This document shows, in pieces, positions 10,405-39,162 of a stretch of DNA of 42,708 nt; positions within the stretch are counted from its first letter, which is position 1, and each line of letters starts with the position of its first letter. This stretch comes from a phage, in sequence record QB031384.1; one strand, 5' to 3'. Under the pieces are notes generated by a model that was not told the DNA's origin, did no database searches, and worked only from the letters and a program-made list of their open reading frames with translations. The position numbers and the translations under genes were made by a program.

Positions 10405-10417
10405 GGGCGGTCTCCTT

Positions 10418-12796
10418 TTAAATGCGTCTACGACGCTGATTGTAACGGAGGATATACGAGATATCCAGTATATTCATTTCCAACGTATCGTCAGTCATGA
10501 AAGTTACTTCTGTTGTACCTGAGTTAGTGCGGCAAGGTATAATTACGTTGCCAAGCTCATACCGAGGGGTAAGGCTCGGGGCTAAATCCTGAGAGTTCAG
10601 AATCAGTCCTGAGTAATCCCCTTCATTATTAACCCCGCGTGCCGTATCAAGTACCTGAACATTGAAGACACCAGACTTACGCGCAGCTACATCTAAACGC
10701 AGAAGACGTACATGTCCTGAGCCAACCAAGTTGTCGTTCTGGTCCTTAATCATTGGAGGGGTAATAGTGAATGAACTCGGAATACGGAAGCCACAATAAT
10801 ACAGGCCATCACGAACCCCGCGTACTACTGTACCTACGTCCCCGTCGTACGAGCGTACACCTACCGAGTCAGTTGCGATAGTAGAGGCCTCAGTAAAAGC
10901 TAATGCTAGCTTAGTACTGTAATCCCCACCCCGTAAGTGCTCTGGTACTGTGAACTTCCCGCCAGATACCTGCACAGCTATACGCGCATCCATATAAGGT
11001 ACGTCATACAACCCATCAGCTACGAAGCCCTCACGAGGGTCAATAGTCTGGACCTGTACTTGCCCTGAGCTAGGGTTACGTGTAAACAGGTACATTACCT
11101 CAGATTGACTATGTACGCTCAAGACTTCCTGCTGGAATGTCCACTGGTGCCAAGCAGCCTGTGACTTGCCTTCGTTATCCCATAAGTACTCATGCACAAG
11201 CAGCGCGTTACGATTACCGCTGTACTGGATAAATCCAATGTTAGTTACCGAGCTTAGTACCATCTTCATTATACGACCGGGTATATATCTAGGCAGGTGC
11301 GCTGTGGCATCTGTAGATGTATACTGCGATGACGTATAAGGACTTGGCACAAACTCAAGCACCCCTGCATAAGCAGAGTTGCGTCGGTTAGGGTAGAGGA
11401 TAGTCTGCCCTGCTACAATTGGCACAATCCGGCTATCACATGAGAATTCTGAGGTTAAGCTTACGCTAGCATTACTGGGAGTAAGGGCACCACTACCTGG
11501 AACTACTGCTTGCATACTATCACCGAAGACTACTAAGTCACGGTTGAACTGCAACGCTGTACGGAATACAGAATCCTGTGCAGATGCAGAAGCAATATCT
11601 ATACGGTCAGTATCGAGCAACGAGGTTACTGTACTGCGGTAGAACCTAGTGTACAAGCCGGACGCTGATAAGCTAATACCTGCACCTGATAGCAGTACAA
11701 GCCTGCCTTGGAATGCAGCAATACCAGTAAGGTACCCGTTATCTACAAAGTAAGGATTAGCGTTAGTATCATCGTCACCTGACAGACGTCCCTCGAAATC
11801 ACGTACAATGATGTTATCATCTGCTGCTAGTTCAAGCGGCATGTTAGAGATGCGGGAAATGCTATTATAACCGCCTACCTCTGTCCAAGCACGGGTGCTG
11901 TAATTGAACTGGTACCATGTACTATCTGAACCTGCGCGACCAACTGCGCATAGCGCCCCGTTAGCAGATGCAGGTAAGGATGCAGGAAGGTCAGATTCCT
12001 GACTTACTCGGGACTGGTTGGAAACAGATGCATATGTAGAGCCTGACGAAGTAGTTACTACACATCCCGGGAGGTTGTTGATAAAGATAGTCGTACCTGC
12101 GGCATCTATCTCTACAGTGCCACCAGCCGCTTCTACCCTACTACGAATACCTGCCACGGTCTGACCATCTACAGAAGATGCAGAACCATTTACCAGCAAC
12201 CCAATGATGCGACCAGAGGTAGCTTTGCTTGGGTCATCATTATTACCGGGTAAGGTGTACGAGGTAGATATAACCCCGCCGTTGTGAGTTACGGTAATAT
12301 TCCATTCCTTACCTGCAAGCACTGTCGTAATGAGACGGAAGAAACCACTGTTATTCGGATTCAGCTTACCTGTATTGTCACGGGTAATAACAGGCCGTTG
12401 CTCAGTATTCAGGATGTATGTCAATCCGCCTACGCTAGCTGTCTGGATAGATGTAGCGCCTATACTAGCCAGAAGGTATGCGTGATTGCCTGAGTTAACT
12501 ACCTGACCTGTATTCTTACCTAAAAGGTACCAATCGCCTGTAGCTGTATTAATTACGAGGTGACGCCCGTCAGTACCGCGCTCTACATAAGAGGTAAAGA
12601 GCTGACCTGATAAAGGTGCAGTGATACCTGTACTGTTATTAAGAAGAACAGCACCCGGGCGGCGTCGGATACTAGTTACAGGGTCAGAGAGCATGTTCAC
12701 CTGAGACCCTAATTGTCCCGGCTTACGCTCACGGGGAATCTGTTGCGATACTCCCTGCAATAAGCTAGGGATAGTTCCTTCCAAGGAATTAGCCAT
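10418..12796 (-). CDS. Tail tubular protein B (T7 gp12-like)
   Basis: 792-aa ORF (T7 gp12 is about 794 aa), immediately downstream of the tail tubular A-like gene with stop/start overlap. Confidence 0.7.
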   Translation of the reverse strand: MANSLEGTIPSLLQGVSQQIPRERKPGQLGSQVNMLSDPVTSIRRRPGAVLLNNSTGITAPLSGQLFTSYVERGTDGRHLVINTATGDWYLLGKNTGQVVNSGNHAYLLASIGATSIQTASVGGLTYILNTEQRPVITRDNTGKLNPNNSGFFRLITTVLAGKEWNITVTHNGGVISTSYTLPGNNDDPSKATSGRIIGLLVNGSASSVDGQTVAGIRSRVEAAGGTVEIDAAGTTIFINNLPGCVVTTSSGSTYASVSNQSRVSQESDLPASLPASANGALCAVGRAGSDSTWYQFNYSTRAWTEVGGYNSISRISNMPLELAADDNIIVRDFEGRLSGDDDTNANPYFVDNGYLTGIAAFQGRLVLLSGAGISLSASGLYTRFYRSTVTSLLDTDRIDIASASAQDSVFRTALQFNRDLVVFGDSMQAVVPGSGALTPSNASVSLTSEFSCDSRIVPIVAGQTILYPNRRNSAYAGVLEFVPSPYTSSQYTSTDATAHLPRYIPGRIMKMVLSSVTNIGFIQYSGNRNALLVHEYLWDNEGKSQAAWHQWTFQQEVLSVHSQSEVMYLFTRNPSSGQVQVQTIDPREGFVADGLYDVPYMDARIAVQVSGGKFTVPEHLRGGDYSTKLALAFTEASTIATDSVGVRSYDGDVGTVVRGVRDGLYYCGFRIPSSFTITPPMIKDQNDNLVGSGHVRLLRLDVAARKSGVFNVQVLDTARGVNNEGDYSGLILNSQDLAPSLTPRYELGNVIIPCRTNSGTTEVTFMTDDTLEMNILDISYILRYNQRRRRI

Positions 12797-13627: not shown

Positions 13628-14620
13628 TTACGCAGTGGTGAAGCTAACGATAGCTGCGGTATCTGGACGACGGTTACCAACAGTATACATCGCATAGCAA
13701 TCCAGTACGTTAGCGAAGTTCAGTTCATCGTCCCAAATACGGGCGGTGAACGGTTGAGCTTCAACAGTTACCAGAGTCTTAGACTTGCTGAAGGTTACCA
13801 TACGGCACTTTGCATCAGCAGCAGTAACGGTATAAGCAGAACCCAGCGGATGCGGACCAGCGCCCGGGAACTCTACAGCCTCAACAACCGGGATACCGTT
13901 CATTACAACTACGCGACGCTGTTTGAAACCGTCATCGTTACTGTTACCAAAGTCACGGTCGAATAGTTTCGGGTGTTCCAGCAACTGAGAATAGATCTCA
14001 GTAGATACCAGAGTAACCATGTCAGACAGCGGAACCTTACGCTTAATCAGCTCGTCAACACCTTTACGGTGTGCTTCGTTGATTGCTACTGCGTTAGCTT
14101 CACGACCAGTTACGCCAACCGGGTTAGCAGTCAGCGAGGCAGCAATCTCAATACCATCAGAGAATGCAGGTTTCAGATGCTCAGGAGCAACCCAAGTACG
14201 GCCTTTAATCAGCTGAATCAAGTGTGCCTGGTCAAAGGTCTCTGCGAACTCATAACCGTTGTTCTGACCCATCTCGGTAAGGAAGTCTGGAGCAGTCCAA
14301 TCATCCTGATAGTCAATCGGGTTACGGATGTACAGCACGGTATCAACAACGATAATCATCTTATCGTTACGAACCGGAGTCGGAGCCAGAGCTTCACCAG
14401 ACTGACGGCCTTTAACTGAAGAAGTATTCAGGCGGTCAATACGATAAGTGTTAGACTGGTTCTGAGTAGAACGCTGAGAGGACAGGCCCAAGAACAGCGC
14501 TTGGTATTCGAAGCGAGAATCTACTTCTGATTGATACACTTCCAGATGGATGTCAGTATCAGACTGCGCGCCAGCCCAATGTGGCTTAGTTGAGTTACCA
14601 GTGTATGCAGTATTAGCCAT
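13628..14620 (-). CDS. Major capsid protein (T7 gp10-like)
   Basis: 330-aa ORF preceded by AGGAAA SD, located between the scaffold gene and the terminator. Call is by synteny and size. Confidence 0.8.
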   Translation of the reverse strand: MANTAYTGNSTKPHWAGAQSDTDIHLEVYQSEVDSRFEYQALFLGLSSQRSTQNQSNTYRIDRLNTSSVKGRQSGEALAPTPVRNDKMIIVVDTVLYIRNPIDYQDDWTAPDFLTEMGQNNGYEFAETFDQAHLIQLIKGRTWVAPEHLKPAFSDGIEIAASLTANPVGVTGREANAVAINEAHRKGVDELIKRKVPLSDMVTLVSTEIYSQLLEHPKLFDRDFGNSNDDGFKQRRVVVMNGIPVVEAVEFPGAGPHPLGSAYTVTAADAKCRMVTFSKSKTLVTVEAQPFTARIWDDELNFANVLDCYAMYTVGNRRPDTAAIVSFTTA

Positions 14621-14743
14621 GTTATGTATTTCCTATATATAGAGTGATTGAGAGTTTAAGTTTAGTTGCCGGAGGTGGGCAGGGAGTATTAAGCAGAAAG
14701 CCACACGGAGTGTACTGTGCTTCCACATCTCCAGCAGGTTTAA

Positions 14744-15577: not shown

Positions 15578-17134
15578 TTATTGAATTAAACCTAATTGTT
15601 GACCTGCTACAGTCGGGTCAGTAACTTGCAATAATGATTGCTGCTGCTGCTGGTCCTGCTGCTGCTGTGCTTGCTCTGCTTGCTGGCGTGCTTGCAATTC
15701 CTCTTCACTATAGAAGAAGGCACTGCTCTGAATGCCGAAGCTATCCATTACACTGTCAATCAAAGCATCAACGTTAGTACGTACAGTTGCCTGTTGCAGT
15801 ACCGGTACAATTAATTGAAGACTCTGTACTGCTTCAAGTAGTCTATCAGCCTGGGCTGACTTGTACAAGCTAGCGGTCCCTACCGTTACATCCAGCCCCA
15901 ATGCACCGAGCTCGAACATAGGTCGAATCTCAGGATACTTATTAAGAACGTACAGGTACGCGAGTTTACGAAGCCAATTATCTGCAAGTGTAGAGTAAGC
16001 GTCACCTAAGGCTGATTGTGCTTCTTGAGCATTCTGACGAATCTCATAAGCAGTTACACGCTCACCTTGACGAGTGTTACCGCCGTACATGAATGCACGG
16101 GATAGCTTCTGCTCGATAGTGCTAATCTCAGCTTGTAGCGCGGCAATCTTCTGAGCGTTCCCACCTTCATGGGACCATACTCCAGAACTGGTACCTGCGG
16201 GCTGGTTAGTCTGTACGAACTCACCTGTCTCTGCATCTTGCAATGCATCAATATCTACACCAGAAGCTGAGCTAACCATGTTAACTACTCTCGCTGCTTC
16301 CACCTCATACAAGGTTAAGCTACGGGAAAGCACAGATAAACGGGCGAAGTCACCAGCGTAATCCTCAACGAGGCTACGACCGTAGTGCTCACCATTAACA
16401 AGGTTCCATGCCAGTACTACGTACGGACATTGGTCCTCAGGATAATAGCTAGGCTCACCTACAGGGTAGGTTTCGACTTCCTGATATACTTTATATACAT
16501 AACCAAGCTCACGACGCTCACGCATAATTCCAGTAAATAAGCGCACATCATCGTACATCTCCTTATTGGAGAAGTGAGCTCGTCGGATATCATCTGGGAT
16601 ATCCGCAACGCTGATACGTTCACGTAGGATTGTAGTCAGTACGTTACCGGCTCCATCACGCTTAGTAGCATAATCGCGCACGCTGTATACGTAAGAACGT
16701 TCAGTTTCGGAGTCGAAGTATTCCAGAGCATTGCCAGTTACGAGTAATAGTTTAATAGCGCGTAGCTTTGCAGCATACCCGCCTTTAGTGAATACGATAC
16801 TAGATGCTACAGCTTCCATTTCAGCCTGAGCTGAGAAGACCGAACCTTGCAGACCTAATTGGTCAACAATCCCTGTAAGGTCAGCGGATGCCGCGAATCT
16901 AAAGAATGGACTGCCTTGTGGAAACAATGCATCTACAATCTTAGTAGCTGCTGAGTTGACAAGCAGCGCACCAGTACTCTGATAGTCATGCACCAGAGAA
17001 GTACGCTTACCGTCACTCGCTGTAATATCCTTAGTGAATACGTTAGGAAGTGTCCAGCGAGCGTATTGCTCAGCAGCGTCTAGTGTAGATGCATCCTTCA
17101 ATCGAACGAATAAATCTGCTAAACGCTTTTGCAT
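15578..17134 (-). CDS. Head-tail connector (portal) protein (T7 gp8-like)
   Basis: 518-aa ORF, first large gene of the structural module, with an acidic/Gln-rich C-terminus. Call is by synteny. Confidence 0.75.
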   Translation of the reverse strand: MQKRLADLFVRLKDASTLDAAEQYARWTLPNVFTKDITASDGKRTSLVHDYQSTGALLVNSAATKIVDALFPQGSPFFRFAASADLTGIVDQLGLQGSVFSAQAEMEAVASSIVFTKGGYAAKLRAIKLLLVTGNALEYFDSETERSYVYSVRDYATKRDGAGNVLTTILRERISVADIPDDIRRAHFSNKEMYDDVRLFTGIMRERRELGYVYKVYQEVETYPVGEPSYYPEDQCPYVVLAWNLVNGEHYGRSLVEDYAGDFARLSVLSRSLTLYEVEAARVVNMVSSASGVDIDALQDAETGEFVQTNQPAGTSSGVWSHEGGNAQKIAALQAEISTIEQKLSRAFMYGGNTRQGERVTAYEIRQNAQEAQSALGDAYSTLADNWLRKLAYLYVLNKYPEIRPMFELGALGLDVTVGTASLYKSAQADRLLEAVQSLQLIVPVLQQATVRTNVDALIDSVMDSFGIQSSAFFYSEEELQARQQAEQAQQQQDQQQQQSLLQVTDPTVAGQQLGLIQ

Positions 17135-17137
17135 AGT

Positions 17138-17368
17138 TTAAATCCCAAGTGCAGACGATGCTGCGCCTTGACGACGTCGCTTCTGGTCTGAGGTAATTGC
17201 AGTTGCAGATGCAGAGGCTGCGCCGCCTGAATCTACCTGAGTCAGGTTCTCACCAGAAGCATCGTTATCTAATGCAGCCTGTGCCGCGATGGCTTGCCGC
17301 TGTTGTTCAGCTGCTTTCTGCTGCGCTTCCAGTGCCGCAGTGTCAGTCAGTCCAACAAGGTCAGTCAC
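17138..17368 (-). CDS. Hypothetical protein (76 aa, GTG start)
   Basis: ORF-track ORF beginning with GTG (plus CAC at 17366-17368) and ending 3 nt before the portal ATG. Ala/Gln-rich, weak SD. Confidence 0.35.
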   Translation of the reverse strand: MTDLVGLTDTAALEAQQKAAEQQRQAIAAQAALDNDASGENLTQVDSGGAASASATAITSDQKRRRQGAASSALGI

Positions 17369-17924: not shown

Positions 17925-18572
17925 TTAAGCTTCAGGTAAGTGATTGTATTTACCTAAGTAATGCCGTATATACTCGGCCCTTGCAGATAACATATCATCC
18001 GCTTGACCTAGATGTACTCCCGCTACTCGCACATAGAACTTACCTGCCGCGCTATTCCAAAAGAAACCTTTAGTTTGACCAGACTTACGATTCTGTGCAT
18101 TCTTAACTTGAGTAGATGCACGTAGGTTGGTTGGATTATTGTTTAGTGGGTTGTTATCTATGTGGTCGACTACCTCGGGCCAACTGCTATATGTCAGAAA
18201 GTACACCGCCCTACTAGCTGATAAAGTCTTGTTGAAAGCCCTGCCAGAATATGCTGTTCTCTGGCTACTCTGATACTTATGAGCACTAGTAACCTTACCT
18301 GACAGGGCAGGACTGCCTGCCTTAATCTTACTGGCAGGCCCGGTAGTCCCCACTAAAGGCCGTCTCCAGCTAACCCAGCTCTCAGAGGAAGCATCTACTT
18401 GAAGGTACACTGCAATAAGCTCTTCCGTAGATAGCCTGTTAAGCATTTCCTTATACTTAGGCATAGGTGGTCCCCAGTTATCTGGATTATCTAGGTACTC
18501 TTTTGTAGCATACTTCTGAACAGGAGGGTGCACGCACGCCATCCATATTTCCCAATCGGTCATCTTAGTCAT
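17925..18572 (-). CDS. HNH homing endonuclease with AP2-like DNA-binding domain
   Basis: 215-aa ORF. HNH-type motif VDHIDNNPLNNNPTNLR and AP2-like GFFWNSAAGKFYVRV...RAEYI. Free-standing between the RNAP gene and the structural module. Confidence 0.7.
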   Translation of the reverse strand: MTKMTDWEIWMACVHPPVQKYATKEYLDNPDNWGPPMPKYKEMLNRLSTEELIAVYLQVDASSESWVSWRRPLVGTTGPASKIKAGSPALSGKVTSAHKYQSSQRTAYSGRAFNKTLSASRAVYFLTYSSWPEVVDHIDNNPLNNNPTNLRASTQVKNAQNRKSGQTKGFFWNSAAGKFYVRVAGVHLGQADDMLSARAEYIRHYLGKYNHLPEA

Positions 18573-26018: not shown

Positions 26019-26591
26019 TTACATTGCCCAATCAGGACGCTCACCCTTACCGCAGTAAAAGTCAATCAGGTCTAGTAAGCGCGGATAATACTTCAGCGAA
26101 CTCTTACCGTCCATTTCCGCAACCTGGCGCCTACTGAAGCTGCGCCACTCTGCTGCCGTATGCTGCTGACATCCTGCACGCACTATGTCCTTACAGATAC
26201 TAATGAAGTACGTTTCTCCGTATATAATGACAGTCTTGGCGCCGCGCAGGTCAGCGCGGCGCAGGTTAGCGCCGCGCAGGTCAGCGTAGCGCAGGTCAGC
26301 GTCGCGCAGGTCAGTACCGGTCAGGTCAGCGCCGCGCAGGTCAGCGATGCGCAGGTCAGCGTCGCGCAGGTCAGCGCCGCTCAGGTCAGCGCCGCGCAGG
26401 TCAGTACCGGTCAGGTCAGCGCCGCGCAGGTTAGCGTAGCGCAGGTTAGCGCCGCGCAGGTCAGCGTCGCGCAGGTCAGTGCTGCTCAGGTCAGCGTCGC
26501 ACAGGTCAGCGTCGCGCAGGTTAGCGCGGCGCAGGTCAACGCTGTGCAGTCTTCCTAACTTATATATTTCGCAGATTTCTTGATAGTTCAT
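26019..26591 (-). CDS. Pentapeptide-repeat protein 1 (about 21 tandem A(D/N)LxG-type pentapeptides plus 70-aa non-repeat C-terminal domain)
   Basis: 190-aa ORF with an unbroken run of [15 protein letters not shown] pentapeptides after the N-terminal cap [12 protein letters not shown]. Strand chosen because all flanking genes are minus-strand. Confidence 0.8.
26238..26549. repeat. Tandem array of about 21 copies of a 15-bp unit (CGCAGGTCAGCGNCG-like) encoding the pentapeptide repeats
   Basis: Periodicity is visible directly: gcgcaggtcagcg recurs every 15 bp, varying mainly at 2-3 positions per unit. Confidence 0.9.
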
Positions 26592-26678: not shown

Positions 26679-27182
26679 CTACTTCTCCACAACTTCATAC
26701 TCTCCATGATTAGGATGGAATCCATGTAACCGCTCGACAGCCTTTCTTGCTTTAACAGCAAGGGTAATATCTGTAAACAAGCCCAAGTGCATATAAATGC
26801 CATCTACCTTTATACGCGCACGCCACTTACCAGCATTCTTATCCCAGCCTACGCCGCATATGCCGCTGGTGTTGCTCGAGTGTAGCCTCATATTGCGGCT
26901 GTTAGTGCTTTGATTTACTAACCTTAGATTAATTAACCTATTATCATCTTTAATATGGTTAATATGGTCTATTTGCAAACCTGCCGGAATAGGTCCATTT
27001 ACCATCTCATAAATTATGCGATGTAATTTGTAAGTCTTACCCCTTACCATGACCTGCATGTAACCACGCTTGTTTAAGCAACCAGCTACCTCTCCTACCT
27101 TTGAAGCACTTCTAGGTAACCTAATCTTCCAAATCAAAGCCCCTGTATCTGGGCAGTAGTTGAATATACTATTCCAATCCAT
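26679..27182 (-). CDS. HNH homing endonuclease with AP2-like DNA-binding domain
   Basis: 167-aa ORF with HNH motif LQIDHINHIKDDNRLINLRLVNQSTNSRN and AP2-like GVGWDKNAGKWRARIKVDGIYMHLGLF. Second such gene in the genome. Confidence 0.7.
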   Translation of the reverse strand: MDWNSIFNYCPDTGALIWKIRLPRSASKVGEVAGCLNKRGYMQVMVRGKTYKLHRIIYEMVNGPIPAGLQIDHINHIKDDNRLINLRLVNQSTNSRNMRLHSSNTSGICGVGWDKNAGKWRARIKVDGIYMHLGLFTDITLAVKARKAVERLHGFHPNHGEYEVVEK

Positions 27183-27378: not shown

Positions 27379-27489
27379 ATTGAATCCTCTTAAGTCTGCA
27401 ACCTCACCGCGAAGTTGCTTAACTAAGAGACTTCCTTAGCGAGTCTTATTTCTCTTAGACTCTCATCTGCATCGCACTGTATTACCTGT

Positions 27490-27638
27490 GCACGGGAGGA
27501 ACCGCTCAAGCTCGTACTATCTACCCAGAGCTTTCAGGAGGGCACCGGGATTAAAGTCCCCGGTGACTAACAAGCCGCTTTGCTATCTGCATCTCGTCTT
27601 GATGAAATGAATTCTACAGCATTCTAAAACTGTGTCAA
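27490..27638 (-). promoter_or_regulatory. Promoter-leader cassette R1: sigma70-like promoter (TTGACA - 16 bp - TAGAAT) plus conserved structured 5' leader
   Basis: -35 at 27633-27638 and -10 at 27611-27616. Downstream leader contains a hairpin (CACCGGG/CCCGGTG), GCCCTCCTGAA, a second hairpin with loop GGGTAGATA, and GAGCGGTTCCTCCCGT. Homologous to copies at 34406-34528 and 35943-36080. Confidence 0.55.
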
Positions 27639-27650
27639 CACTTATTTTAA

Positions 27651-28838
27651 TTAAATTACCTCTTCCTCTTTAAAGGATTTACCAATACCACATTCGGCGG
27701 GAAACTTAACTTCAGACAGTATGCCAAAGTTAGGCCACAACTGTAGCATCCTATCACGGGCTCCTTCCATAACGTTTTTGATGAGCTTACCCGCCTTACG
27801 GGCCGTCTCTTCGTCAGCACAATCTATGTACAAACAGTCATGGACGGTAACCAGCAAACACCATTTACCCCCCATCCAATTGTCAGCTATACCAGCCCTC
27901 ATAGCCATTCCGGTTGCAATAAGCATAAGCAGGGAACCTGATCCTTGAAACGGATAGTTAGCCATCTCTGTGGGCTTAAAGTCCATTACCTGCTTACCTT
28001 CGCGCCACACCGGCTTCTGACGGAAGCGGTAGCGAGTACCGCAAGGCGTAGTGAAGTAGCCCTCGCGATAGATACGCCAGCTGCCGTCATCTGCTTGTTC
28101 ACGGCGTATAGGCTCCAGCAGCGCAGTACGGTTTACTTCAGCTGCAATGACATCCCTGTACTTAATAGACTCAGGGAATAGTGCCTCCTCGTTAGCTAAG
28201 AACTTCTCAGCGTCGGCTAAGCTAGCACCTGAGGCGAACGCCAGTCCTTTAGCGGATGCTCCATATTGTGCTGCGAAGCTGAAGGTTTTGATGGCTGTTC
28301 GCTTCTTCTTCCATCCTTTATGGTCCGGTGCATCCGGGTTATGGCAAAGCTCGTAGACTTCTTCATAAGGCATACCTTCTTGGAATGCTAGACGATAGCA
28401 GTGCATATCCGTACCGGCTTCAAGCAAGCTCAGTAATTTCTTATCACCAGTGATTACACAGCCCATTACAACCTCCATAGCTGAGTAGTCACACTGTGCA
28501 ATCATACCCTGCTCACCATAGCGGCTACGCAGAATCTGCTTAACCTTAGACTCACGCGGCAGCTGCTGCATGTTCGGGTTAGATGTTGACAGGCGTCCGG
28601 TAGTAGTTGAGCAGTGATTCGACCTGTGGTGAATGATGCCAGAACCATCTGCTGATGTAGGGATGACGTACGGCAGCATGCCCGTCACCTTACGCAGACT
28701 GCCATCCTTATTAGTCTCACGTACTTCATAGAAGCCGAGGTCCTTCTGGCGTGTAGTCATTTCTTTGTATGCTTTGAAGAAGTCTGAAGCTAACTTAGCC
28801 ATCTTGTTCCATCCCAATAAAATAATGTGCAAGGTCAT
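27651..28838 (-). CDS. DNA polymerase, family A: polymerase (fingers/palm) part
   Basis: 395-aa ORF with TGRLSTSNPNMQQLP, motif A-like CDYSAMEV, motif B-like RTAIKTFSFAAQYG and motif C VHD. Overlaps the upstream exonuclease-domain ORF by 44 nt in a different frame. Confidence 0.85.
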   Translation of the reverse strand: MTLHIILLGWNKMAKLASDFFKAYKEMTTRQKDLGFYEVRETNKDGSLRKVTGMLPYVIPTSADGSGIIHHRSNHCSTTTGRLSTSNPNMQQLPRESKVKQILRSRYGEQGMIAQCDYSAMEVVMGCVITGDKKLLSLLEAGTDMHCYRLAFQEGMPYEEVYELCHNPDAPDHKGWKKKRTAIKTFSFAAQYGASAKGLAFASGASLADAEKFLANEEALFPESIKYRDVIAAEVNRTALLEPIRREQADDGSWRIYREGYFTTPCGTRYRFRQKPVWREGKQVMDFKPTEMANYPFQGSGSLLMLIATGMAMRAGIADNWMGGKWCLLVTVHDCLYIDCADEETARKAGKLIKNVMEGARDRMLQLWPNFGILSEVKFPAECGIGKSFKEEEVI

Positions 28839-29940
28839 TCATTGCGTCCGTTCCTGTGCTGTACACAGGGCTACCATCCGCTAATGTTTGAGCACCTTTG
28901 TATTCACCGCGGTCTCCGTACTTCTCACGTAGAGACTGAGGTAGGTCCTGAATATTAACCAGCCCGTCGAAGCGGTACAGGCGTTCACCCCACTTCATAG
29001 CTTGCTCGTCAGTGTCTACTTTTATGAACTTAGGCATACCCTTATTACGCCCAGACTTATACACCCCGTCCTGTACTTCCTTCTTAATGTATTTAGGTGG
29101 GTCATAAGGAACCTTGCACTTGTACTTAACCATGCCACCATACACTAAAGCGGACATATGATAACCGCTATTCCAGTTAAACTCGAAGCCCTCTGGCAAT
29201 TCTGGCAAGAATGTCTGAAGTAACTCCCGCAGATTCCGAATAGCGTCCTCCTGCTCCTTCTGGTTTACGCGTGCTGTAGGCATATCAACGTACACGCCAT
29301 TGAACTCACAGTATGCCAGAGCTGCGACTGCCTCCATCCTTTCCCAGACCATAGGCATCTGTCCACGTTCCGCAAATACTGCGCATTGCCCGTAGAAGCA
29401 CAGCGCTGTGTTGACTATGTCACCGTTAGGCCCTGTTAAGTATTCATGTAGTAGCATAGGGTCAATGTCTGCTGTCAGAACCCCTTGCTGCCATAGTAGC
29501 TTAACGCCGTCGACTTTGTGTGACCCGCCATACTTAGGGGCAGTCTCATCTAGTGACGGGTAAAGATTCTGGAAGTCGCTGGCAATGTACTCGCCCTGCA
29601 TAGTATCAAAGACTCGACCTCCTCGTCTAAGGAACGACTCGAACTGCTCACGGGCAAAGGTCAGCGCCCAGCTAATCTCGTACGCTGCGTTGTGCGCTAC
29701 GATTAACCACGTATCATCCTGAATAGGTAGCCACTGCTTAGGGTCAGCTGCTAAGAAATCAGTTCGGGATTCATAGCGTACACTCTGCACCTCGCTGCAC
29801 TGTACAGTCCCATCCGGCATAGTCCTATCAATGCGGAAGCCTGATTCTACGATGTAGTTATCAGGGCAGTACGGAGTTGCGACCCCGCCGTAGTACGGAT
29901 GATTTTGAGTTTCAATATCCCAAATTAGAATGCTACTCAT
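28795..29940 (-). CDS. DNA polymerase, family A: N-terminal 3'-5' exonuclease part (separate frame from the polymerase part)
   Basis: Exo I motif WDIET near the N-terminus. The ORF track starts it at a TTG (29946); the ATG at 29940 overlaps the upstream small ORF's stop as ATGA. Ends 44 nt inside the polymerase-domain ORF. Confidence 0.8.
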   Translation of the reverse strand: MSSILIWDIETQNHPYYGGVATPYCPDNYIVESGFRIDRTMPDGTVQCSEVQSVRYESRTDFLAADPKQWLPIQDDTWLIVAHNAAYEISWALTFAREQFESFLRRGGRVFDTMQGEYIASDFQNLYPSLDETAPKYGGSHKVDGVKLLWQQGVLTADIDPMLLHEYLTGPNGDIVNTALCFYGQCAVFAERGQMPMVWERMEAVAALAYCEFNGVYVDMPTARVNQKEQEDAIRNLRELLQTFLPELPEGFEFNWNSGYHMSALVYGGMVKYKCKVPYDPPKYIKKEVQDGVYKSGRNKGMPKFIKVDTDEQAMKWGERLYRFDGLVNIQDLPQSLREKYGDRGEYKGAQTLADGSPVYSTGTDAMNDLAHYFIGMEQDG

Positions 29941-30089
29941 TTCCAATTACTCCGACGTGATTTATTAATGGCTGCCCGTACAATCATCTCGCTACTGTCC
30001 AGCGTGTAGCGCCTAACCTGCTTACGATTGTTAGCAATTGCTCTGATGACTTCGTAGTCTGCCTCAGTAATATCACTTTGCTTTAGCAT
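29937..30089 (-). CDS. Small basic ORF (50 aa), not in ORF track
   Basis: ATG at 30089-30087 preceded by GGTGAGGTG; stop overlaps the DNA polymerase ATG. Translation MLKQSDITEADYEVIRAIANNRKQVRRYTLDSSEMIVRAAINKSRRSNWK. Confidence 0.35.
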   Translation of the reverse strand: MLKQSDITEADYEVIRAIANNRKQVRRYTLDSSEMIVRAAINKSRRSNWK

Positions 30090-32501: not shown

Positions 32502-32803
32502 GCATAATACTCAATGCAAGCAGCCTTAAACGCCTGCTTAGCGCCTTCATACCCCAGCTGCTGCAACTGCCTTACTATATCGAAATTGATGCGTCGCAGG
32601 ACCTCTGAGGCCCTTTCAGCATCATACTTATAATAACCTACCAACAACCGCATACCTTCCTTAGTATCGTAGTCCCTGCACCATTTTAAAGGGCAGAGCT
32701 TACGCAGTTCAATCGGTACGTCCTTTAACGTCTTAAGGCCTAAGCTGCTCTGGCTCTCGAGCATACGCCAGTACTGCTCTGTTACTTCTTCTACTGGTAA
32801 CAT
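32474..32803 (-). CDS. Hypothetical protein (109 aa)
   Basis: ORF starting about 10 nt after the stop of pentapeptide-repeat protein 2. No motif recognised. Confidence 0.5.
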   Translation of the reverse strand: MLPVEEVTEQYWRMLESQSSLGLKTLKDVPIELRKLCPLKWCRDYDTKEGMRLLVGYYKYDAERASEVLRRINFDIVRQLQQLGYEGAKQAFKAACIEYYAWQTSYRGI

Positions 32804-32813
32804 GCCTAGCTCC

Positions 32814-33350
32814 TTAGATACTAACCCAATCAGCGACGCGCAGGTCAGCGTCGCGCAGGTCAGTGCCGGTCAGGTCAGCGCCGCGCAGGTTAGCGCCGCG
32901 CAGGTTAGCGCCAATCAGGTTAGCGTCGCGCAGGTTAGCGCCGCTCAGGTCAGTGCCGCGCAGGTTAGCGCCGCGCAGGTTAGCGCCGTGCAGGTCAGCG
33001 CTGCGCAGGTCAGCGCCGCTCAGGTCAGCGCCGCTCAGGTCAGCGATGTTCAGGTCAGCGTAGCGCAGGTCAGCGCCGCGCAGGTCAGCGCCGCTCAGGT
33101 CAGCGCCGCGCAGGTTAGCGCCAATCAGGTTAGCGTCGCGCAGCTTAGCGTCGCTCAGGTCAGCGACGCGCAGGTCAGCGTCGCTCAGGTCAGCGTAGCG
33201 CAGGTCAGCGCCGCTCAGGTCAGCGCCGCGCAGGTCAGCGTCGAGCAGGTTAGCGCGGCGCAGGTCAGCGCCGCACAGGTCAGCGCCGCACAGGTCAGCG
33301 CCTTCCAAGGATTCTAACTTGTATTTATTACAGATATTGTCATAAGTCAT
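32814..33350 (-). CDS. Pentapeptide-repeat protein 2 (about 32 tandem pentapeptides; paralogue of 26019-26591)
   Basis: Unbroken A(D/N)L(R/S/C)G-type run that ends at the stop codon. Preferred start is the internal ATG at 33350 (GAGGT SD 8 nt upstream; cap MTYDNICNKYKL matches [12 protein letters not shown] of protein 1). The ORF track extends it to 33401. Confidence 0.8.
   Translation of the reverse strand: MTYDNICNKYKLESLEGADLCGADLCGADLRRANLLDADLRGADLSGADLRYADLSDADLRVADLSDAKLRDANLIGANLRGADLSGADLRGADLRYADLNIADLSGADLSGADLRSADLHGANLRGANLRGTDLSGANLRDANLIGANLRGANLRGADLTGTDLRDADLRVADWVSI
32827..33302. repeat. Tandem array of about 32 copies of the same 15-bp unit (CGCAGGTCAGCGNCG-like)
   Basis: Same 15-bp periodicity and unit sequence as the array at 26238-26549, on the same strand. 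Confidence 0.9.
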
Positions 33351-33360
33351 ATTAGTAACC

Positions 33361-33597
33361 TCAGTTAATTTTAATATTAAAACGTGCACAATACCCTTCA
33401 AGGGTCATCCCTACTTTAGCTGCTTTAAGACTGTAAGCTAACTTAAGAGCTTCCTTAGCGTCATGCTCACGAGCCAGCTTCTCAATCGTTACTTCATCAT
33501 TACGCATCAGAATCATTTCGGGGTTCCGGTTAATCATTTCTGCATCTCCAGTTTGAAAAGGGCCATTGCAGCGTTCCAGGCGAAACGCGGGTTGCAT
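33361..33597 (-). CDS. Hypothetical protein (78 aa)
   Basis: ORF-track ORF in the early/middle region. No motif recognised. Confidence 0.45.
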   Translation of the reverse strand: MQPAFRLERCNGPFQTGDAEMINRNPEMILMRNDEVTIEKLAREHDAKEALKLAYSLKAAKVGMTLEGYCARFNIKIN

Positions 33598-33976: not shown

Positions 33977-33985
33977 GACCGACCA

Positions 33986-34312
33986 TTATTTAACTCCTTT
34001 CGGTGTAGAAGACTTAGATTTAAAATAACTGTTAATGCGCTGGCAAGTCTTGCTACTAGGGCGGCAAGTGCGTTCACCACGTTCCTTGTACTCAGCGCTC
34101 TTAGCACTGCGCTGAGAGGCTTTATCTGACCAGTCATTACTAGGAATGGCTTCTGCTTTATAAGTATGCGTCATGAGCTTCTTAAGAGCTTTACGGGCCT
34201 CAGTACCCTCAGGCTTCTGTGCCAGCTGCACTAATTCACTACGATTAGCTTCTAACTTCTTAGCATCTTCAACAGAGATACCGAAACGACGTGCTTGAGC
34301 TTTAGCGTTCAT
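33986..34312 (-). CDS. Hypothetical basic protein (108 aa)
   Basis: First gene after promoter-leader cassette R2, with AAGGAG SD 6 nt upstream. Lys/Arg-rich, possibly nucleic-acid binding. Confidence 0.5.
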   Translation of the reverse strand: MNAKAQARRFGISVEDAKKLEANRSELVQLAQKPEGTEARKALKKLMTHTYKAEAIPSNDWSDKASQRSAKSAEYKERGERTCRPSSKTCQRINSYFKSKSSTPKGVK

Positions 34313-34405
34313 CTTAACTCCTTAGTGGTTTTATTAAAGCCCTCCGCAGAAGGCTTTGTAAAACTACTTTAGTTTCTTTCATCTCAGACCCACTGAATTA
34401 TCCGT

Positions 34406-34528
34406 GGACGGGAGGAACCGCTCGAGCCTGTTCTATCTACCCTAGGCTCTCAGAAGGGCAATCACTTAGCGTTGTTGATTAACGTCCTGCTATGAATCCA
34501 ACTATACTCCTATTTTATTTTGTGTCAA
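34406..34528 (-). promoter_or_regulatory. Promoter-leader cassette R2: sigma70-like promoter (TTGACA - 16 bp - TATAGT) plus conserved structured leader
   Basis: -35 at 34523-34528 and -10 at 34501-34506. Leader has a hairpin (AATCA/TGATT), GCCCTTCTGA, a GAGCC/GGCTC stem around GGGTAGATA, and GAGCGGTTCCTCCCGT. Confidence 0.55.
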
Positions 34529-34531
34529 CAC

Positions 34532-35197
34532 TTATTTTGAAATTCTTTCTGAAATATACACAAATCCCTTAGGAGTAAACTGCGCAGAGATGCGTGCAAC
34601 CTTTAATCTGTCAAAAGTAACCTTATGCTCCCCACGTTTAGCCTTTAGCCAGCCTGCACTGAATGTCCACGTACCATTCAATTTATACATATGCTTATTC
34701 TCTACCAGCCAACTTCTTACTTCAGCTTCAGTGTAAGATAAGAACTTACACATCTCACGGAAAGTCATAAGACCTGTAGTATCTACATAGTTACCTACGA
34801 ACTCAACCTTAGGCGCTGCTTCTTCTACCTTCTCTTGGAGCTTCAAGTTCTCTTCTGCGTAGTTCTGGAGAAGTCCCAGCAACTGCTTAGGGTCATGCAA
34901 GTTAATAGCAGGCTGACGTTGCTTACGCTCCAGCTCTTCCCAACGGTCAATGATACGGGCGCGCAGTTCTACATTGTAGCCAGAGATAATAAGTAATGTA
35001 TCACGTTTAGTTAAATGCCACTCGCGCTGTTGCTGATTATTATATCCGGCGTAAGTTACTGATTTACTTGATTGGCTCAAAACTGAGCCAATGCTTTCAA
35101 TGTCCCTAAGTACGTTCTTATGCAACTTACCAGTCAGCTCAGCAATCTCGCGGCTAGTCATGGTCTGTACATCAGTAGTAGTAGTTAAATCAAACAT
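34532..35197 (-). CDS. Rha-family regulatory protein with KilA-C/antirepressor-like C-terminal domain
   Basis: 221-aa ORF. N-terminal MTSREIAELTGKLHKNVLRDIESI matches the Rha signature as recalled. C-terminal half resembles antirepressor KilA-C domains. Confidence 0.55.
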   Translation of the reverse strand: MFDLTTTTDVQTMTSREIAELTGKLHKNVLRDIESIGSVLSQSSKSVTYAGYNNQQQREWHLTKRDTLLIISGYNVELRARIIDRWEELERKQRQPAINLHDPKQLLGLLQNYAEENLKLQEKVEEAAPKVEFVGNYVDTTGLMTFREMCKFLSYTEAEVRSWLVENKHMYKLNGTWTFSAGWLKAKRGEHKVTFDRLKVARISAQFTPKGFVYISERISK

Positions 35198-35448
35198 TAC
35201 ATAGTCCCCATAGAATCAACAAAGCAAGCAACAACGATAGTCTTATCTTCATAAGGCATAGCCTCGACACTGTTGAGAGTGTCTACAAGGTCCTTCAGCT
35301 CGATACCTTGTGTGTACGCCCACTTACCCCAGTTGCACAGCTCAATACTGTTAGGCGCTGCTTTAGACGGGTTACAGTACACCATAGCCGCAGTACCTAC
35401 CAGTGCCGCACAGAACCAGATTTTAAACGTATTCAGTTTCATATACAC
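35197..35448 (-). CDS. Small secreted/membrane-targeted protein (83 aa) with N-terminal signal peptide-like segment
   Basis: N-terminus MYMKLNTFKIWFCAALVGTAAMVYC is hydrophobic and signal-like. GAGGTG SD upstream. Confidence 0.45.
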   Translation of the reverse strand: MYMKLNTFKIWFCAALVGTAAMVYCNPSKAAPNSIELCNWGKWAYTQGIELKDLVDTLNSVEAMPYEDKTIVVACFVDSMGTM

Positions 35449-35543
35449 CTCAGGAGAACAGTTGAATTAAGCCGTAGATAGCTAAGAAAGGTGCTGCTAC
35501 CTGCAACAGCATTAAAGGGATGATGAATAGCATGTACAGTGTA

Positions 35544-35882
35544 TTACGCATTATGTGCATTCTCCTCACAATACTGCAACGCAAAGCGCAGCAATTCATT
35601 ATACAGCGAAGTAGTCAGAATCCCTTCATTGTAGTACTCAGCCTCATGCTTACGGAGAGTATCCTTAGCAGCGCATGCAACCTTCAAGCTGCACCCTGTA
35701 GCCTGCATAAGGCCGCGTACAAGCTGTGTATCCTTATAAGCTTTCTTAGCATGCCATTTAACAAAACTTACTGCTGCACCTACAACAACCATACCACCCA
35801 TCACGACAAAGCCAATTGCACTAGACATATCATATACCTTTAATTCTGTACCCTCGCAGCGAGGATACTTAACTAAAGACAT
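35544..35882 (-). CDS. Hypothetical membrane protein (112 aa)
   Basis: First ORF after promoter-leader cassette R3. Contains one clear hydrophobic helix (GFVVMGGMVVVGAAVSFV). Confidence 0.45.
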   Translation of the reverse strand: MSLVKYPRCEGTELKVYDMSSAIGFVVMGGMVVVGAAVSFVKWHAKKAYKDTQLVRGLMQATGCSLKVACAAKDTLRKHEAEYYNEGILTTSLYNELLRFALQYCEENAHNA

Positions 35883-35942
35883 CTTAGCGAAGCTCTTGTC
35901 TCTTCAATCTAGTGAGCTTCTCATCTATTCCCTCTGTATAAC

Positions 35943-36080
35943 CCGAGGACGCTAGGTAACGCTCAGAACCTGTTTATCTACCCCGATTCTTCAGGAGGGC
36001 AGCGGCTTTATGTTATCCGCTAACGTCTTGCTTATGTCTTGCTATGTGATGAAGTATACGCTTCAAAACAGGTAAGTCAA
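35943..36080 (-). promoter_or_regulatory. Promoter-leader cassette R3: sigma70-like promoter (TTGACT - 16 bp - TATACT) plus conserved structured leader
   Basis: -35 at 36075-36080 and -10 at 36053-36058. Leader has a hairpin (AGCGG/CCGCT), GCCCTCCTGAA, an AGAAUC/GGUUCU stem (one G-U pair) around GGGTAGATA, and a diverged GAGCG...CCUC segment. Confidence 0.55.
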
Positions 36081-36135
36081 CAACTATTTTCAATTATTTC
36101 ATTCAGCGTAGTAAAATCTCGCACTATTAATAACA

Positions 36136-36909
36136 CTAACAAACTTCAGTGTCCTTACCTACTGCCTCAGATTGTAAGCGGACTAGCTCAATCTCTATCT
36201 CCTCCCAACTCTTAGAAGAGTAATCAGAATCTTCATACTCATCGCTAGTCATCCACTTACTATAGCGCTTGATACCATACTTCGTACGCACTATAGGAGT
36301 AGTATCTAATCCTTCACAATGGTTATTAGGATACGCTACTGAGCAGTTTAACCCGCCTAAAGAACCTTCAGCTATATCTATAGCTAAGCCTAAGCGTGCT
36401 TCCTTACCTCCAACTATACCATCACTATAAGGATACTCTGCACCTGCATTAACAGTACGTATAAAGTTAAGCTCATAAGCCCATATCATGTCAGCAGCAG
36501 CGTAAGGTGCTATAACAGCAGCTACACTACGCAAAGCCTTACTGAGCCTCCTAGACTCTGTACCACTACAACTACAGTACTTCTTAATACTGGCAGGAGT
36601 ATAGTCTGGTAGAGTCTTAGAGAGCCATAGCAGTTGTTCTATCTTCCCAATGTCCTTACTACTCCAGTCCTTAGTAAGCGCTACGGCAGCTCCATATAAA
36701 GCAAGAACATCAGCAGGTACTGTATCTATATCCTTACCTGTAAGATACGCAGACAACAGCGTAGAGTCAGCCTGCCTGTACTCTCGCAGCTGCTTACGCT
36801 TAGCTGTTATCTCCTTAGAGCTTTGAACTACAGCACCAGTAACTTGATTAACCCAACCATTTCTTCCCTGCTTCCAGAGATTACCGTTTACATCTATCTT
36901 AGTAGCCAT
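36136..36909 (-). CDS. First early protein (257 aa from SD-supported ATG), function unknown; acidic C-terminus
   Basis: The ORF track starts at 36924, but the second ATG (36909) has a GAGGT SD 6 nt upstream. It is the first gene after the putative genome end; C-terminus is acidic (DEYEDSDYSS, EEIEIE). Confidence 0.55.
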   Translation of the reverse strand: MATKIDVNGNLWKQGRNGWVNQVTGAVVQSSKEITAKRKQLREYRQADSTLLSAYLTGKDIDTVPADVLALYGAAVALTKDWSSKDIGKIEQLLWLSKTLPDYTPASIKKYCSCSGTESRRLSKALRSVAAVIAPYAAADMIWAYELNFIRTVNAGAEYPYSDGIVGGKEARLGLAIDIAEGSLGGLNCSVAYPNNHCEGLDTTPIVRTKYGIKRYSKWMTSDEYEDSDYSSKSWEEIEIELVRLQSEAVGKDTEVC

Positions 36910-37093
36910 CCTATACCTCTGCATGTAGTAAAAACTCGCACTATATATATAACAGTACTTAGTTCATTGACTCACCTGATTGTTAAAGAACTACCTATAC
37001 TACCTATAATATCACAGCGCTAACCCTGCATCAAGCATTGCACAGCCTGGGAGCAAAAGAGGTAAGCCCGGAGGCATAGCAGCGGCATGCAGC

Positions 37094-37416: not shown

Positions 37417-39162
37417 TTAGTTATTGCGTCCTGTAAGAAGTACTGCATGATCATACGTGTGCTGCACCCCATCCAGCTGCATGCACAGACCTATTAACTG
37501 ACCGTTACTGCTGCCGGAATAACTAGCAGGAGCATCAAACTGACCTGAGATACCGCGTCTATCCAGGGCATCTGCACGAGCAACCCAACTGTAGTTACCT
37601 GGAGCAGCACTACGCTGTACGCCCGACCCAGCGGGTAAAGTAAAGCTAAGCTGTTTAGGGAAGCTACAGCGTAAGTTCAGAGGAGGTGCACCGCCATCTT
37701 CGAAGAACAATGCATTCCCTGAGCTGGTAGCCCAGTTAGAAGGGAATACTTCTACAGTACAGTCGCTGAAGCTCGTGCCAGGACGAAAGTACATGAAGCT
37801 GTAAAGTTCTGAGCTAGGGTGGCGCATCCTGATACTGATGTTGCAGCGGGTCATGCTTGAGATACGTTGTGTTTCAAACAAGTTCAGTCCGGTACGAGTA
37901 CCAGTATTAGTATCGCCGATGATGTTACTTGCATCCCAATTGAAGCGTTCTACCTGAACAGTACGGGGAGACGGTAACTCCGAGACCATAGCTTGTTTAA
38001 CATCGAAGAAGTTATCCTGGAACACTATGCCCTGAATACTACCGTTCATAGTAATGGCTGCGCTCAGGCTACGGCTGCGGTCTACAATGAAGCTACAACC
38101 ACGTACAGTAACATCATTAATGAGATACTGGCTTGAGTCGGAGTTAGAGTCCTGAAAGAAGTCTACGAAGCTGCACATACCCGGGTGGTTACCTGAAGTG
38201 AACCGACAATTCTCTACAGTAAAGCCGTTAATATGCGTAGTAGCTACTGCATCTGGACCTGCTGCAAAGATAACAACCTGACCTGATACGTCCCCAGTTA
38301 CCCCGGACATAACAGAGTTGTAAAGGTACGTACCAGCACCCTCTGACTCTGCGCCGTGCAGTGCTACATAGCAGCCGCGGGTATATCCTGAAATGAAAGA
38401 ATCGCGATAGTACGTATTATGCTGGTGCAGTTCTACAGTAGCAGCAATTACACGTGCACGGGCAGAATTAGCCCGGAATGTACAGCCTGTGACACCACTA
38501 AATGGTGCGTTTACATATACAGTACTGTGGTCACGGTTTACATCGCTCTGAATCAGGTTAAGGAACCGGCAGTTACGTACATGCGTATCTGAGCCGTACC
38601 CGTTCCAGCCAATAGTAACGCCCCATGTAACGTCCCCGTTCTGGAAGGTAATGCCATCTACGCTACAGTTATACCCGCGTCCGAATGCGATACCATTGCG
38701 GAGATGCCCGGCGTTAGCGAAGTCGTAACCGCCAAAGTCAATAGTACCCTCGCCATAAATATGGCAGTTATCAAGGTTGCCCGAGTTAGCTGGGTTACCA
38801 TCAGTAAAGCCTACGAAGACTTGGAAGGAACTATTAGCTAAAGCAGGGCCTACTTTAATAGTACCGTCCAGTTTAATACTTACATTGCTTTTAAGCTGGA
38901 TAAGACCGCTATGCCCTGAAACTGGGCCAGTGCTAATGCTGTTCAGCGTCCATGTACCTTCCGGGATAACTAGTAAACCGCCACCTACTGACTCTATGTA
39001 ATCAATAGCTGCCTGCATACCTTCTCGGGCATCAGCTACGTCGGGAGTAATCCACTGGCGCAGGTTATACCCATTATCATTGAGGTAGGTGCTAAGCTGT
39101 AAACCTGAATGGTCTACATGCAGCGTATCCAGTTCGACTTCAACTAACTTTACTAAGGTCAT
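37417..39162 (-). CDS. Tailspike / polysaccharide depolymerase with right-handed beta-helix (pectate-lyase-like), no N-terminal particle-anchor domain
   Basis: 581-aa ORF with N-terminal REGMQAAIDYIESVGGGLLVIPEGTWTLNS, then Gly/Asn/Thr-rich repeats typical of parallel beta-helices. No gp17-like adaptor region. Last gene before the putative genome end. Confidence 0.7.
   Translation of the reverse strand: MTLVKLVEVELDTLHVDHSGLQLSTYLNDNGYNLRQWITPDVADAREGMQAAIDYIESVGGGLLVIPEGTWTLNSISTGPVSGHSGLIQLKSNVSIKLDGTIKVGPALANSSFQVFVGFTDGNPANSGNLDNCHIYGEGTIDFGGYDFANAGHLRNGIAFGRGYNCSVDGITFQNGDVTWGVTIGWNGYGSDTHVRNCRFLNLIQSDVNRDHSTVYVNAPFSGVTGCTFRANSARARVIAATVELHQHNTYYRDSFISGYTRGCYVALHGAESEGAGTYLYNSVMSGVTGDVSGQVVIFAAGPDAVATTHINGFTVENCRFTSGNHPGMCSFVDFFQDSNSDSSQYLINDVTVRGCSFIVDRSRSLSAAITMNGSIQGIVFQDNFFDVKQAMVSELPSPRTVQVERFNWDASNIIGDTNTGTRTGLNLFETQRISSMTRCNISIRMRHPSSELYSFMYFRPGTSFSDCTVEVFPSNWATSSGNALFFEDGGAPPLNLRCSFPKQLSFTLPAGSGVQRSAAPGNYSWVARADALDRRGISGQFDAPASYSGSSNGQLIGLCMQLDGVQHTYDHAVLLTGRNN

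Follow-up and report, generated by a model that had tools for sequence, protein, structure and literature searches.

Introduction

Genes annotated as 'antirepressor/Rha' serve as a marker of a temperate lifestyle in the screening of phages for therapy (PMC8879740). One such gene, encoding a protein with a Rha and a KilAC domain, lies in the early region of a phage genome that appears strictly lytic, and the question arises whether it is a sign of hidden or lost temperateness, an antirepressor with targets outside its own genome, or a native regulator of the lytic lineage. In the present study the locus was analyzed with regard to domain structure, expression context, orthologues and resemblance to known systems. 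The window referred to below is the whole stretch of DNA analyzed (42,708 nt, sequence record QB031384.1); coordinates of all features are compiled in Table 1.

Genome type and lifestyle

The window, ~42.7 kb in size, represents the entire genome of a podophage, and the minus strand carries all of its genes. Across most of its length its sequence agrees to 98-99% with that of Escherichia phage vB_EcoP_P64441 (Autographivirales; Autoscriptoviridae; Slopekvirinae; P64441 in the following), in which the orthologue of the Rha/KilAC protein, sharing 98.6% of its amino acids, is annotated as 'DNA binding protein'. The early region shows 77-84% nucleotide identity to PAS7, a more distant relative that was described as lytic (PMC11522302) and that serves as the type of Cepavirus, a proposed genus. 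Pfam assignments comprised a single-subunit (T7-type) RNA polymerase, a DnaB-like helicase and a split family-A DNA polymerase among the genes for replication and transcription, as well as endonuclease VII, a T7-type terminase, lysozyme, endosialidase and a second tailspike. Genes of a lysogeny module (integrase or transposase, immunity repressor, excisionase, plasmid-partition genes) were not found: the annotation of the near-identical P64441 lists neither an integrase nor a CI/Cro-type repressor, an excisionase or a partition gene, and Pfam scans of the early ORFs and of the segments differing from P64441 detected none of these either. Judged by its gene content the genome is of a lytic type, that of the Cepavirus-like Slopekvirinae, and the description as apparently strictly lytic, which the original prediction had founded on the lack of a visible integrase, repressor or excisionase, stands.

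Domain structure of the Rha/KilAC protein

The 221-aa protein matches Phage_pRha (PF09669; E=1.1e-16, 61.6 bits) at aa 13-91 over the full profile (positions 1-91 of 91), and ANT/KilAC (PF03374; E=1.5e-13, 51.5 bits) at aa 122-220 over positions 2-106 of 108. Both scores exceed the Pfam gathering cut-offs of 29.9 bits for PF09669 and 25.3 bits for PF03374, so that the domain search which had been named beforehand as able to overturn the Rha/KilA-C assignment upheld it. The protein furthermore matches PHROG 63, 'anti-repressor Ant' (E=1.6e-46), and scores 31.4 bits (E=1.6e-07) against NCBIfam TIGR02681 phage_pRha, under the curated cut-off of 45.95 bits; by these profile scores the Rha domain is divergent and falls outside the narrower TIGR02681 subfamily. 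The domain keeps its helix-turn-helix core SREIAELTGKxHxxVxRDI and is hypervariable in the wing (aa ~27-75).

In the AlphaFold2 model the Rha domain reaches a pLDDT of 86-89, with the elements H15-22, H26-35, E45-50, E56-62 and H64-71, and the KilAC domain a pLDDT of 83-93 with an HTH-plus-beta-hairpin topology; between them a linker helix (103-127) is predicted with lower confidence. The model predicts a winged-helix fold, and the protein is a putative two-domain DNA-binding regulator. Searching solved structures by sequence yielded nothing relevant, Foldseek against the PDB returned weak generic winged-helix matches alone (E>=0.076), and none of the solved antirepressor-repressor complexes is related to the protein by sequence or fold. 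PADLOC reported no defence-system match for the protein and its neighbours.

The start codon is supported by the conservation of residues 1-12 across all orthologues in addition to the Shine-Dalgarno site. As read from the sequence, TAATG joins the stop of the upstream 83-aa ORF to the start of the Rha/KilAC gene, an overlap which suggests translational coupling.

Table 1. Positions of the Rha/KilAC gene, its domains and the surrounding early-region features in the window.
Feature	Position	Strand	Remarks
CDS, Roi/Rha-KilAC family protein, 221 aa	34532..35197	minus	ATG at 35197, TAA at 34534-34532
Phage_pRha domain, N-terminal, aa 13-91	34925..35161	minus	Pfam; winged helix-turn-helix
Helical linker, aa ~92-121, reaching ~134	34835..34924	minus	Slot-allele alignments
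ANT/KilAC domain, C-terminal, aa 122-220	34538..34834	minus	Pfam
Translation initiation region	35195..35209	minus	GGGGA Shine-Dalgarno 7 nt upstream of ATG; TAATG overlap
Gene body replaced in PAS7	34557..35153	minus	blastn, window against PAS7
ORF, 112 aa	35544-35882	minus	First of block after cassette ~36080; no Pfam or PADLOC match
ORF, 49 aa (orf49)	35450-35599	minus	Kept in relatives; no Pfam or PADLOC match
ORF, 83 aa (orf83)	35197-35448	minus	Kept in relatives; PHROG 19819, function not assigned there
Sigma-70-type promoter TTGACT-16-TATACT	36080-36053	minus	Scan, 10/12 consensus positions; presumed 'R3'
Sigma-70-type promoter TTGACA-16-TATAGT	34528-34501	minus	Scan, 11/12 consensus positions; cassette after the Rha/KilAC gene
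Sigma-70-type promoter TTGACA-16-TAGAAT	27638-27611	minus	Remaining one of the three cassettes
Leader RNA copy 1	35921..36024	minus	Covariance model 108.7 bits; between promoter 36080-36053 and 112-aa ORF
Leader RNA copy 2	34379..34483	minus	Covariance model 118.7 bits; downstream of the Rha/KilAC gene, leader of next block

Promoter cassettes and expression context

Three homologous cassettes occur on the minus strand, in each of which a sigma-70 promoter close to consensus precedes a conserved leader; the AAAATAAGTGTTGACACA context of promoter 34528-34501 recurs at 27638-27611. The cassette at ~36080 is third in plus-strand order and hence presumably the one that had been called 'R3', with the Rha/KilAC gene as the last gene of its transcription unit. 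The gene is indeed the fourth and last ORF between this cassette and the one at 34528-34501, behind three small ORFs without Pfam or PADLOC matches. That it ends a unit is less certain: the -35 box of the following promoter begins 3 nt past the stop codon and no intrinsic terminator was predicted between the gene and that cassette, which makes read-through into the next block likely; on sequence grounds the block probably does not form a closed transcription unit. The gene's final codons (..ERISK*) extend into the upstream part of the following cassette, and it is probably this overlap that keeps them conserved.

The cassettes themselves are unlikely operators of the Rha/KilAC protein, as PAS7 keeps them (promoter and leader 77-85% conserved) together with a slot protein unrelated by BLAST. 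The genome yielded no candidate operator.

Orthologues, selection and origin

A metagenome protein collection contained a graded series of full-length relatives with 100, 89, 88, 77 ... 50% identity. Three contigs encoding orthologues of 65%, 56% and 50% amino acid identity were fetched, from assemblies of about 40-45 kb, and all carry the gene in the same slot as the window, with the 83-aa ORF upstream and a 108-aa ORF, DUF7267, a 109-aa ORF, primase, helicase and split polymerase downstream; in one of them T7-type tail fibre, terminase and lysis genes follow further upstream across the genome end. Against these three syntenic orthologues dN/dS (NG86) amounts to 0.22-0.30, values that are approximate with dS near saturation, and this estimate of about 0.25 indicates purifying selection on the gene. 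A PHROG-63 protein occupies the slot in every examined member of the Cepavirus-like lineage. The sister genus represented by phiKDA1 possesses the flanking genes and lacks the Rha/KilAC gene, which is therefore regarded as dispensable for the basic lytic programme.

Outside the lineage the best match among 50,697 phage records was 51% identical over 70% of the protein, and typical matches, mostly in temperate phages, reached 30-40%. An IMG/VR scan with the single protein gave no match, and a scan with the alignment gave relatives at <=41% identity and nothing above, so that the metagenome protein collection was the sole source of close orthologues. No DNA-level relative of the gene exists in 5,426 complete E. 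coli genomes, and recent exchange with E. coli prophages was therefore rejected. A literature search on Rha or antirepressor genes in Autographivirales found nothing relevant. From synteny and sequence divergence the gene is best described as an accessory early gene native to a lytic lineage, neither a remnant nor a sign of lysogeny.

This leaves little room for the gene being a recently captured temperate gene, i.e., a moron or decaying remnant without a role, or a mark of cryptic temperateness. Most database relatives at 30-40% identity do occur in temperate phages, G+C drops slightly, to 0.43-0.44 locally as compared with about 0.48, and lifestyle-prediction tools treat antirepressor/Rha as a temperate marker (PMC8879740). 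However, the low G+C spans the whole early region and not this gene alone, no temperate phage record holds a homologue above 51%, and the genome is without lysogeny genes. The graded series of syntenic orthologues in a lytic lineage, purifying selection, the intact ORF, its Shine-Dalgarno site and the stop/start overlap with the upstream ORF likewise contradict decay, so that capture without function is largely refuted and, in our view, hardly credible.

Plasticity of the slot

The slot protein is 50-65% identical as compared with 89-94% for helicase, 73-88% for primase and 72-89% for orf108; on these values the slot diverges or is replaced much faster than the neighbouring genes. Variation is unevenly distributed within it. 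The first ~25 residues (MFDLTTTN.VQTMTSREIAELTGK) are nearly invariant among slot alleles, and the linker motif RARIIDRWEELE..PAINLHDPKQLLGLLQNYAEENLKLQEKVEEAAPKVEFV (also RARIIDRWEELE...PKVEFV) is almost unchanged, most of the closest orthologues keeping 81-100% identity in the linker, including those whose adjoining modules drop to 20-50%. The Rha wing module (aa ~27-78), in contrast, forms at least 10 sequence clusters among 34 slot proteins, and the KilAC core divides into two or more subtypes (sharing >=81% or ~50% of residues with the window), which are combined independently of the type of N-module. Thus P0004 and P0006 possess an N-module 94-98% identical to that of the window with a C-module at 53-55%, P0005, P0011 and P0033 an N-module at 15-44% with a C-module at 85-87%, and in P0035 and P0115 (ECO104 4-5-2 type) a Rha N-module is joined to a PAS7-type C-module. 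The pattern in the alignments is one of N- and C-modules reassorting between conserved junctions, namely the first ~25 aa, the linker and the last codons.

The most extensive replacement was seen in PAS7. In blastn two segments aligned, 35154-35197 (82%) and 33983-34556 (77%), and the stretch separating them gave no alignment; alignable parts of the PAS7 gene are therefore its first 44 nt (15 codons) and its last ~25 nt together with the downstream cassette. BLASTP identity of the PAS7 slot protein (251 aa) to the window protein is limited to aa 1-15, and it still matches PHROG 63.

Over the lineage as a whole, alleles and modules are exchanged at this early-region slot of Cepavirus-like phages to an extent that marks it as a hot spot.

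Comparison with known systems

A named protein of the same build is Roi of phage HK620, annotated as 'DNA-binding protein'. It contains PF09669 and PF03374 in the same order (240 aa versus 221 aa here) and is significantly similar in sequence (BLASTP E=4e-22, 33% identity over aa 13-168, a stretch that takes in the linker motif AAPKVEF), so that the protein is of Roi type by domain order as well as by similarity. In addition, the alternative N-module of the slot alleles P0011, P0023 and P0115 resembles the Roi N-module (KRDSIVVVAQ..PEFTARLVDRW). Clerget & Boccard (1996) reportedly described Roi of HK022 as a site-specific DNA-binding protein whose site lies within the roi gene, adjacent to an IHF site; Roi is also said to confer an IHF-dependent phenotype, lytic growth being blocked in IHF mutants. 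The genomic setting differs: Roi is encoded in the delayed-early nin region, between P and Q, of temperate phages (HK022, HK620, H-19B, Stx phages), whereas the gene analyzed here belongs to the immediate-early region transcribed by host RNAP in a lytic phage of the T7 supergroup.

A counterpart in a phage of a genus described as lytic is provided by the Jerseyvirus SETP3, whose ORF20 ('regulatory protein', 223 aa) shows the same architecture of PF09669 and PF03374 and is 39% identical over aa 1-146 (E=5e-29), the KilAC halves being too diverged for BLASTP alignment. SETP3 belongs to the Guernseyvirinae and thus to another virus family, and its gene adjoins tail genes, followed by an annotated terminator. 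Matches to the protein at E<=1e-8 occur in 272 Salmonella phage records, and many of these records are, like SETP3, 41-43 kb long; taxonomy was checked for SETP3 alone, and the assignment of the others as Jerseyviruses follows from names and sizes. Jerseyviruses have been described as lytic (e.g. PMC10113451). By this match a gene combining Rha and KilAC in a lytic genome is already on record, and the usual association of these domains with temperate phages, from which the original prediction started, was overstated. Since the gene is moreover a syntenic resident of the whole Cepavirus-like lineage and not a recently captured temperate gene, its being 'repurposed', as had been supposed, is not shown.

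Single domains are shared more widely. The Rha proteins of P22 and phi80 have the Rha domain in common with the 221-aa protein, P22 Rha (178 aa) being without KilAC, and P1 Ant/KilA has the KilAC domain in common with it (Pfam; for domain history see PMC9043618).

Possible function

With moderate confidence we regard the product as an accessory regulator of Roi type that is expressed early by host RNAP, binds DNA and has different targets in different hosts. It would be made within the first minutes of infection and bind DNA through its Rha domain, as reported for the homologous lambdoid Roi, while the KilAC domain might provide a second contact to DNA or protein; it would modulate transcription, or a regulatory circuit of host or prophage, in a host-strain-specific manner and without being essential. 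A target differing between hosts is suggested by the discrete, shuffled alleles. The role in host takeover or transcription modulation that had been proposed at the outset is plausible, and the sequence does not separate it from antirepressor-like or SOS-modulating activity.

An antirepressor in the true sense would act in trans by binding and inactivating the repressors of resident prophages or satellites, waking the prophages or neutralising repressor-dependent immunity or exclusion, and its shuffled modules would track repressor diversity. The family name and the PHROG 63 annotation point in this direction, as do the extreme discrete variation and conserved recombination junctions expected of a specificity determinant and the abundance of relatives with 30-41% identity in temperate phages and prophage-derived contigs. 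Yet classical antirepressors (P22 Ant, P1 Ant1/Ant2) act on the repressor of their own phage, and the genome encodes no such partner, a cognate CI/Cro/C1-type repressor or immunity region being absent from the window and from P64441. Roi, the characterised member with both Rha and KilAC, is reported to bind DNA, and we know of no Rha+KilAC protein that binds a repressor. As the protein also lacks a sequence relationship to any solved antirepressor-repressor complex, and the 5,426 E. coli genomes gave no sign of prophage exchange at the DNA level, a true antirepressor appears unlikely.

A different activity is known from Listeria phage AriS, whose KilAC domain alone suppresses SOS induction when over-expressed (PMC9043618). 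By analogy KilAC would here damp the host SOS response, probably via RecA, at the time when the phage breaks down and replicates DNA, and Rha would regulate phage genes. AriS-like proteins place alternating N-terminal domains (AntA/AntB, Bro-N, pRha) before KilAC (PMC9043618); the pRha-KilAC arrangement of the window protein fits this architecture, and such exchangeable domains follow the same modular logic as the slot alleles. The phage encodes an exonuclease and endonucleases, which would generate SOS signals. The relationship to the tested proteins, however, exists at the level of Pfam families: AriS and A118 gp42, both from Listeria comK prophages and said to be 77% identical, carry AntA/AntB at the N-terminus in place of pRha, and A118 gp42 shows no significant pairwise similarity to the 221-aa protein (BLASTP E=0.24). 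Both come from temperate phages of a Gram-positive host, unlike the lytic E. coli podophage analyzed here, and AriS was active in that host only on over-expression (PMC9043618). PAS7 and ECO104 4-5-2 have, in place of KilAC, to which the activity would be tied, a C-terminal module that is barely related to it, and we judge a dual function of this kind improbable.

Beyond the preferred reading as a Roi-like accessory regulator, the slot could be seen as encoding a rapidly diversifying specificity factor whose Rha-wing and KilAC modules are matched to strain-variable host regulators, a bolder view that we hold only tentatively and consider rather doubtful. Its targets might be prophage or satellite repressors, regulators of defence systems or the SOS machinery, and alleles would be exchanged at built-in recombination points, namely the conserved leader at the N-terminus, the linker and the 3' junctions. 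If so, the outcome of infection by lytic capsule-specific podophages would depend on the prophage and defence content of the host. Exchange hot spots usually hold host-interaction factors, which makes the slot gene a reasonable candidate for strain-specific infection success.

The combination of Rha and KilAC in a lytic phage is already known, from at least one genus of lytic phages, and the present gene is no sign of hidden lysogeny; it is not unexpected enough to alter current views. It does call for caution in reading 'antirepressor' as a lysogeny marker, for by the antirepressor/Rha marker the K1-capsule-specific phage analyzed here would be wrongly flagged as temperate.

A structured leader RNA in the promoter cassettes

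Apart from the Rha/KilAC gene, the leaders of the three promoter cassettes were found to form a covarying structured RNA of ~105 nt, each copy beginning roughly 30-50 nt downstream of the sigma-70 -10 box. For nine leader copies from four phages RNAalifold gave 25 pairs in three stem-loop structures, with compensatory double changes in 14 of the 25. Paired cells amount to 95.6% as compared with 79% in shuffles and 26-42% with partners slid, and the observed covariation was reached by none of 500 shuffles. With the covariance model three copies each were detected in the window, P64441 and the metagenomic relative L004, two each in the fetched parts of PAS7 and L003 and in the IMG/VR contig L090, and one in the IMG/VR contig L089; the relatives L006 and ECO104 4-5-2 yielded no copy. 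Rfam contained no match to the leader RNA even at E<=1. Kinship with the put antiterminator RNAs of HK022 was considered and found unsupported, the only match to the covariance model, of 16.3 bits, lying in the right half of HK022, ~2 kb from the expected PL. As a conjecture, the RNA might act in cis on the processivity, processing or stability of the transcript; it looks more novel than the Rha/KilAC gene.

Structured leader RNA of the promoter cassettes

Downstream of each of the three sigma-70 promoter cassettes in the window lies an RNA element of about 105 nt that is conserved and structured; it is predicted to fold into three stem-loop structures with 25 pairs. Compensatory changes were detected in 14 of these pairs, none of 500 shuffles attained the covariation observed, and the single-stranded motifs UGCCCUYCUGA, GGGUAGAUA and GAGCGGUUCCUCCCGU are invariant. 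Comparison with Rfam yielded no match. Copies are also present in Escherichia phage vB_EcoP_P64441 (P64441), the more distant PAS7 and several metagenomic relatives, and none was found in the relatives ECO104 4-5-2 and L006. As a conjecture, this leader could act in antitermination, in processing or in stability.

Features of the phage genome and of metagenome contig L088
Feature	Position	Strand	Remarks
Endosialidase (K1 capsule)	3-3251	-	receptor-binding protein; T7 tail-fibre N-terminus
HNH endonuclease gene	17925-18572	-	
Pentapeptide-repeat protein	26019-26591	-	190 aa
HNH endonuclease gene	26679-27182	-	
Structured RNA copy	27463-27567	-	sigma-70 cassette; promoter 27638-27611
Family-A DNA polymerase	27651-28838 and 28795-29946	-	two ORFs
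Pentapeptide-repeat protein	32814-33401	-	195 aa
Structured RNA copy	34379-34483	-	sigma-70 cassette; promoter 34528-34501
Structured RNA copy	35921-36024	-	sigma-70 cassette; promoter 36080-36053
Direct repeats bracketing first early ORF	36108-36132 and 36925-36949		25-30 nt
First early ORF	36136-36924	-	262 aa
Second tailspike	37417-39162	-	receptor-binding protein; 581 aa
L088 antirepressor-type genes	5679-6404, 10001-10762, 14146-14718, 16854-17234		

Segments differing from P64441

Two receptor-binding proteins are encoded in the window, an endosialidase and a tailspike, and the gene of the latter lies inside a segment without match to P64441, which amounts to a host-range module swap between the two near-identical phages. 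The first early ORF, for which no family match was obtained, is flanked on both sides by the repeat TGTTAT(A)TA(T)ATAGTGCGAG(A/T)TTTTACTAC, and its place is taken in P64441, elsewhere 98% identical, by a different ORF of 244 aa; the early region thus appears to open with another exchangeable cassette, the second one. The segments holding both HNH endonuclease genes are likewise missing or different in P64441, consistent with mobile homing-type insertions. The split of the family-A DNA polymerase is shared by relatives.

Pentapeptide-repeat proteins and antirepressor-type domains

The two pentapeptide-repeat proteins, resembling genes of which are present in Ralstonia and Eggerthella phages, may be DNA mimics. 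The gene of the longer one gives rise to a DNA repeat with a 15-nt period and, at 32802-33317 on the plus strand, to a long ORF that is spurious.

The metagenome contig L088 (56 kb) belongs to a phage unrelated to that of the window and encodes a DNA ligase and an endonuclease VII. It carries four different proteins with antirepressor-type domains (AntA, Rha, Bro-N and ORF6N), its Rha wing module is about 81% identical to that of the Rha/KilAC protein in the window, and no lysogeny genes were visible within the 20 kb examined. The contig is a further sign that such domains circulate among phages whatever their lifestyle.
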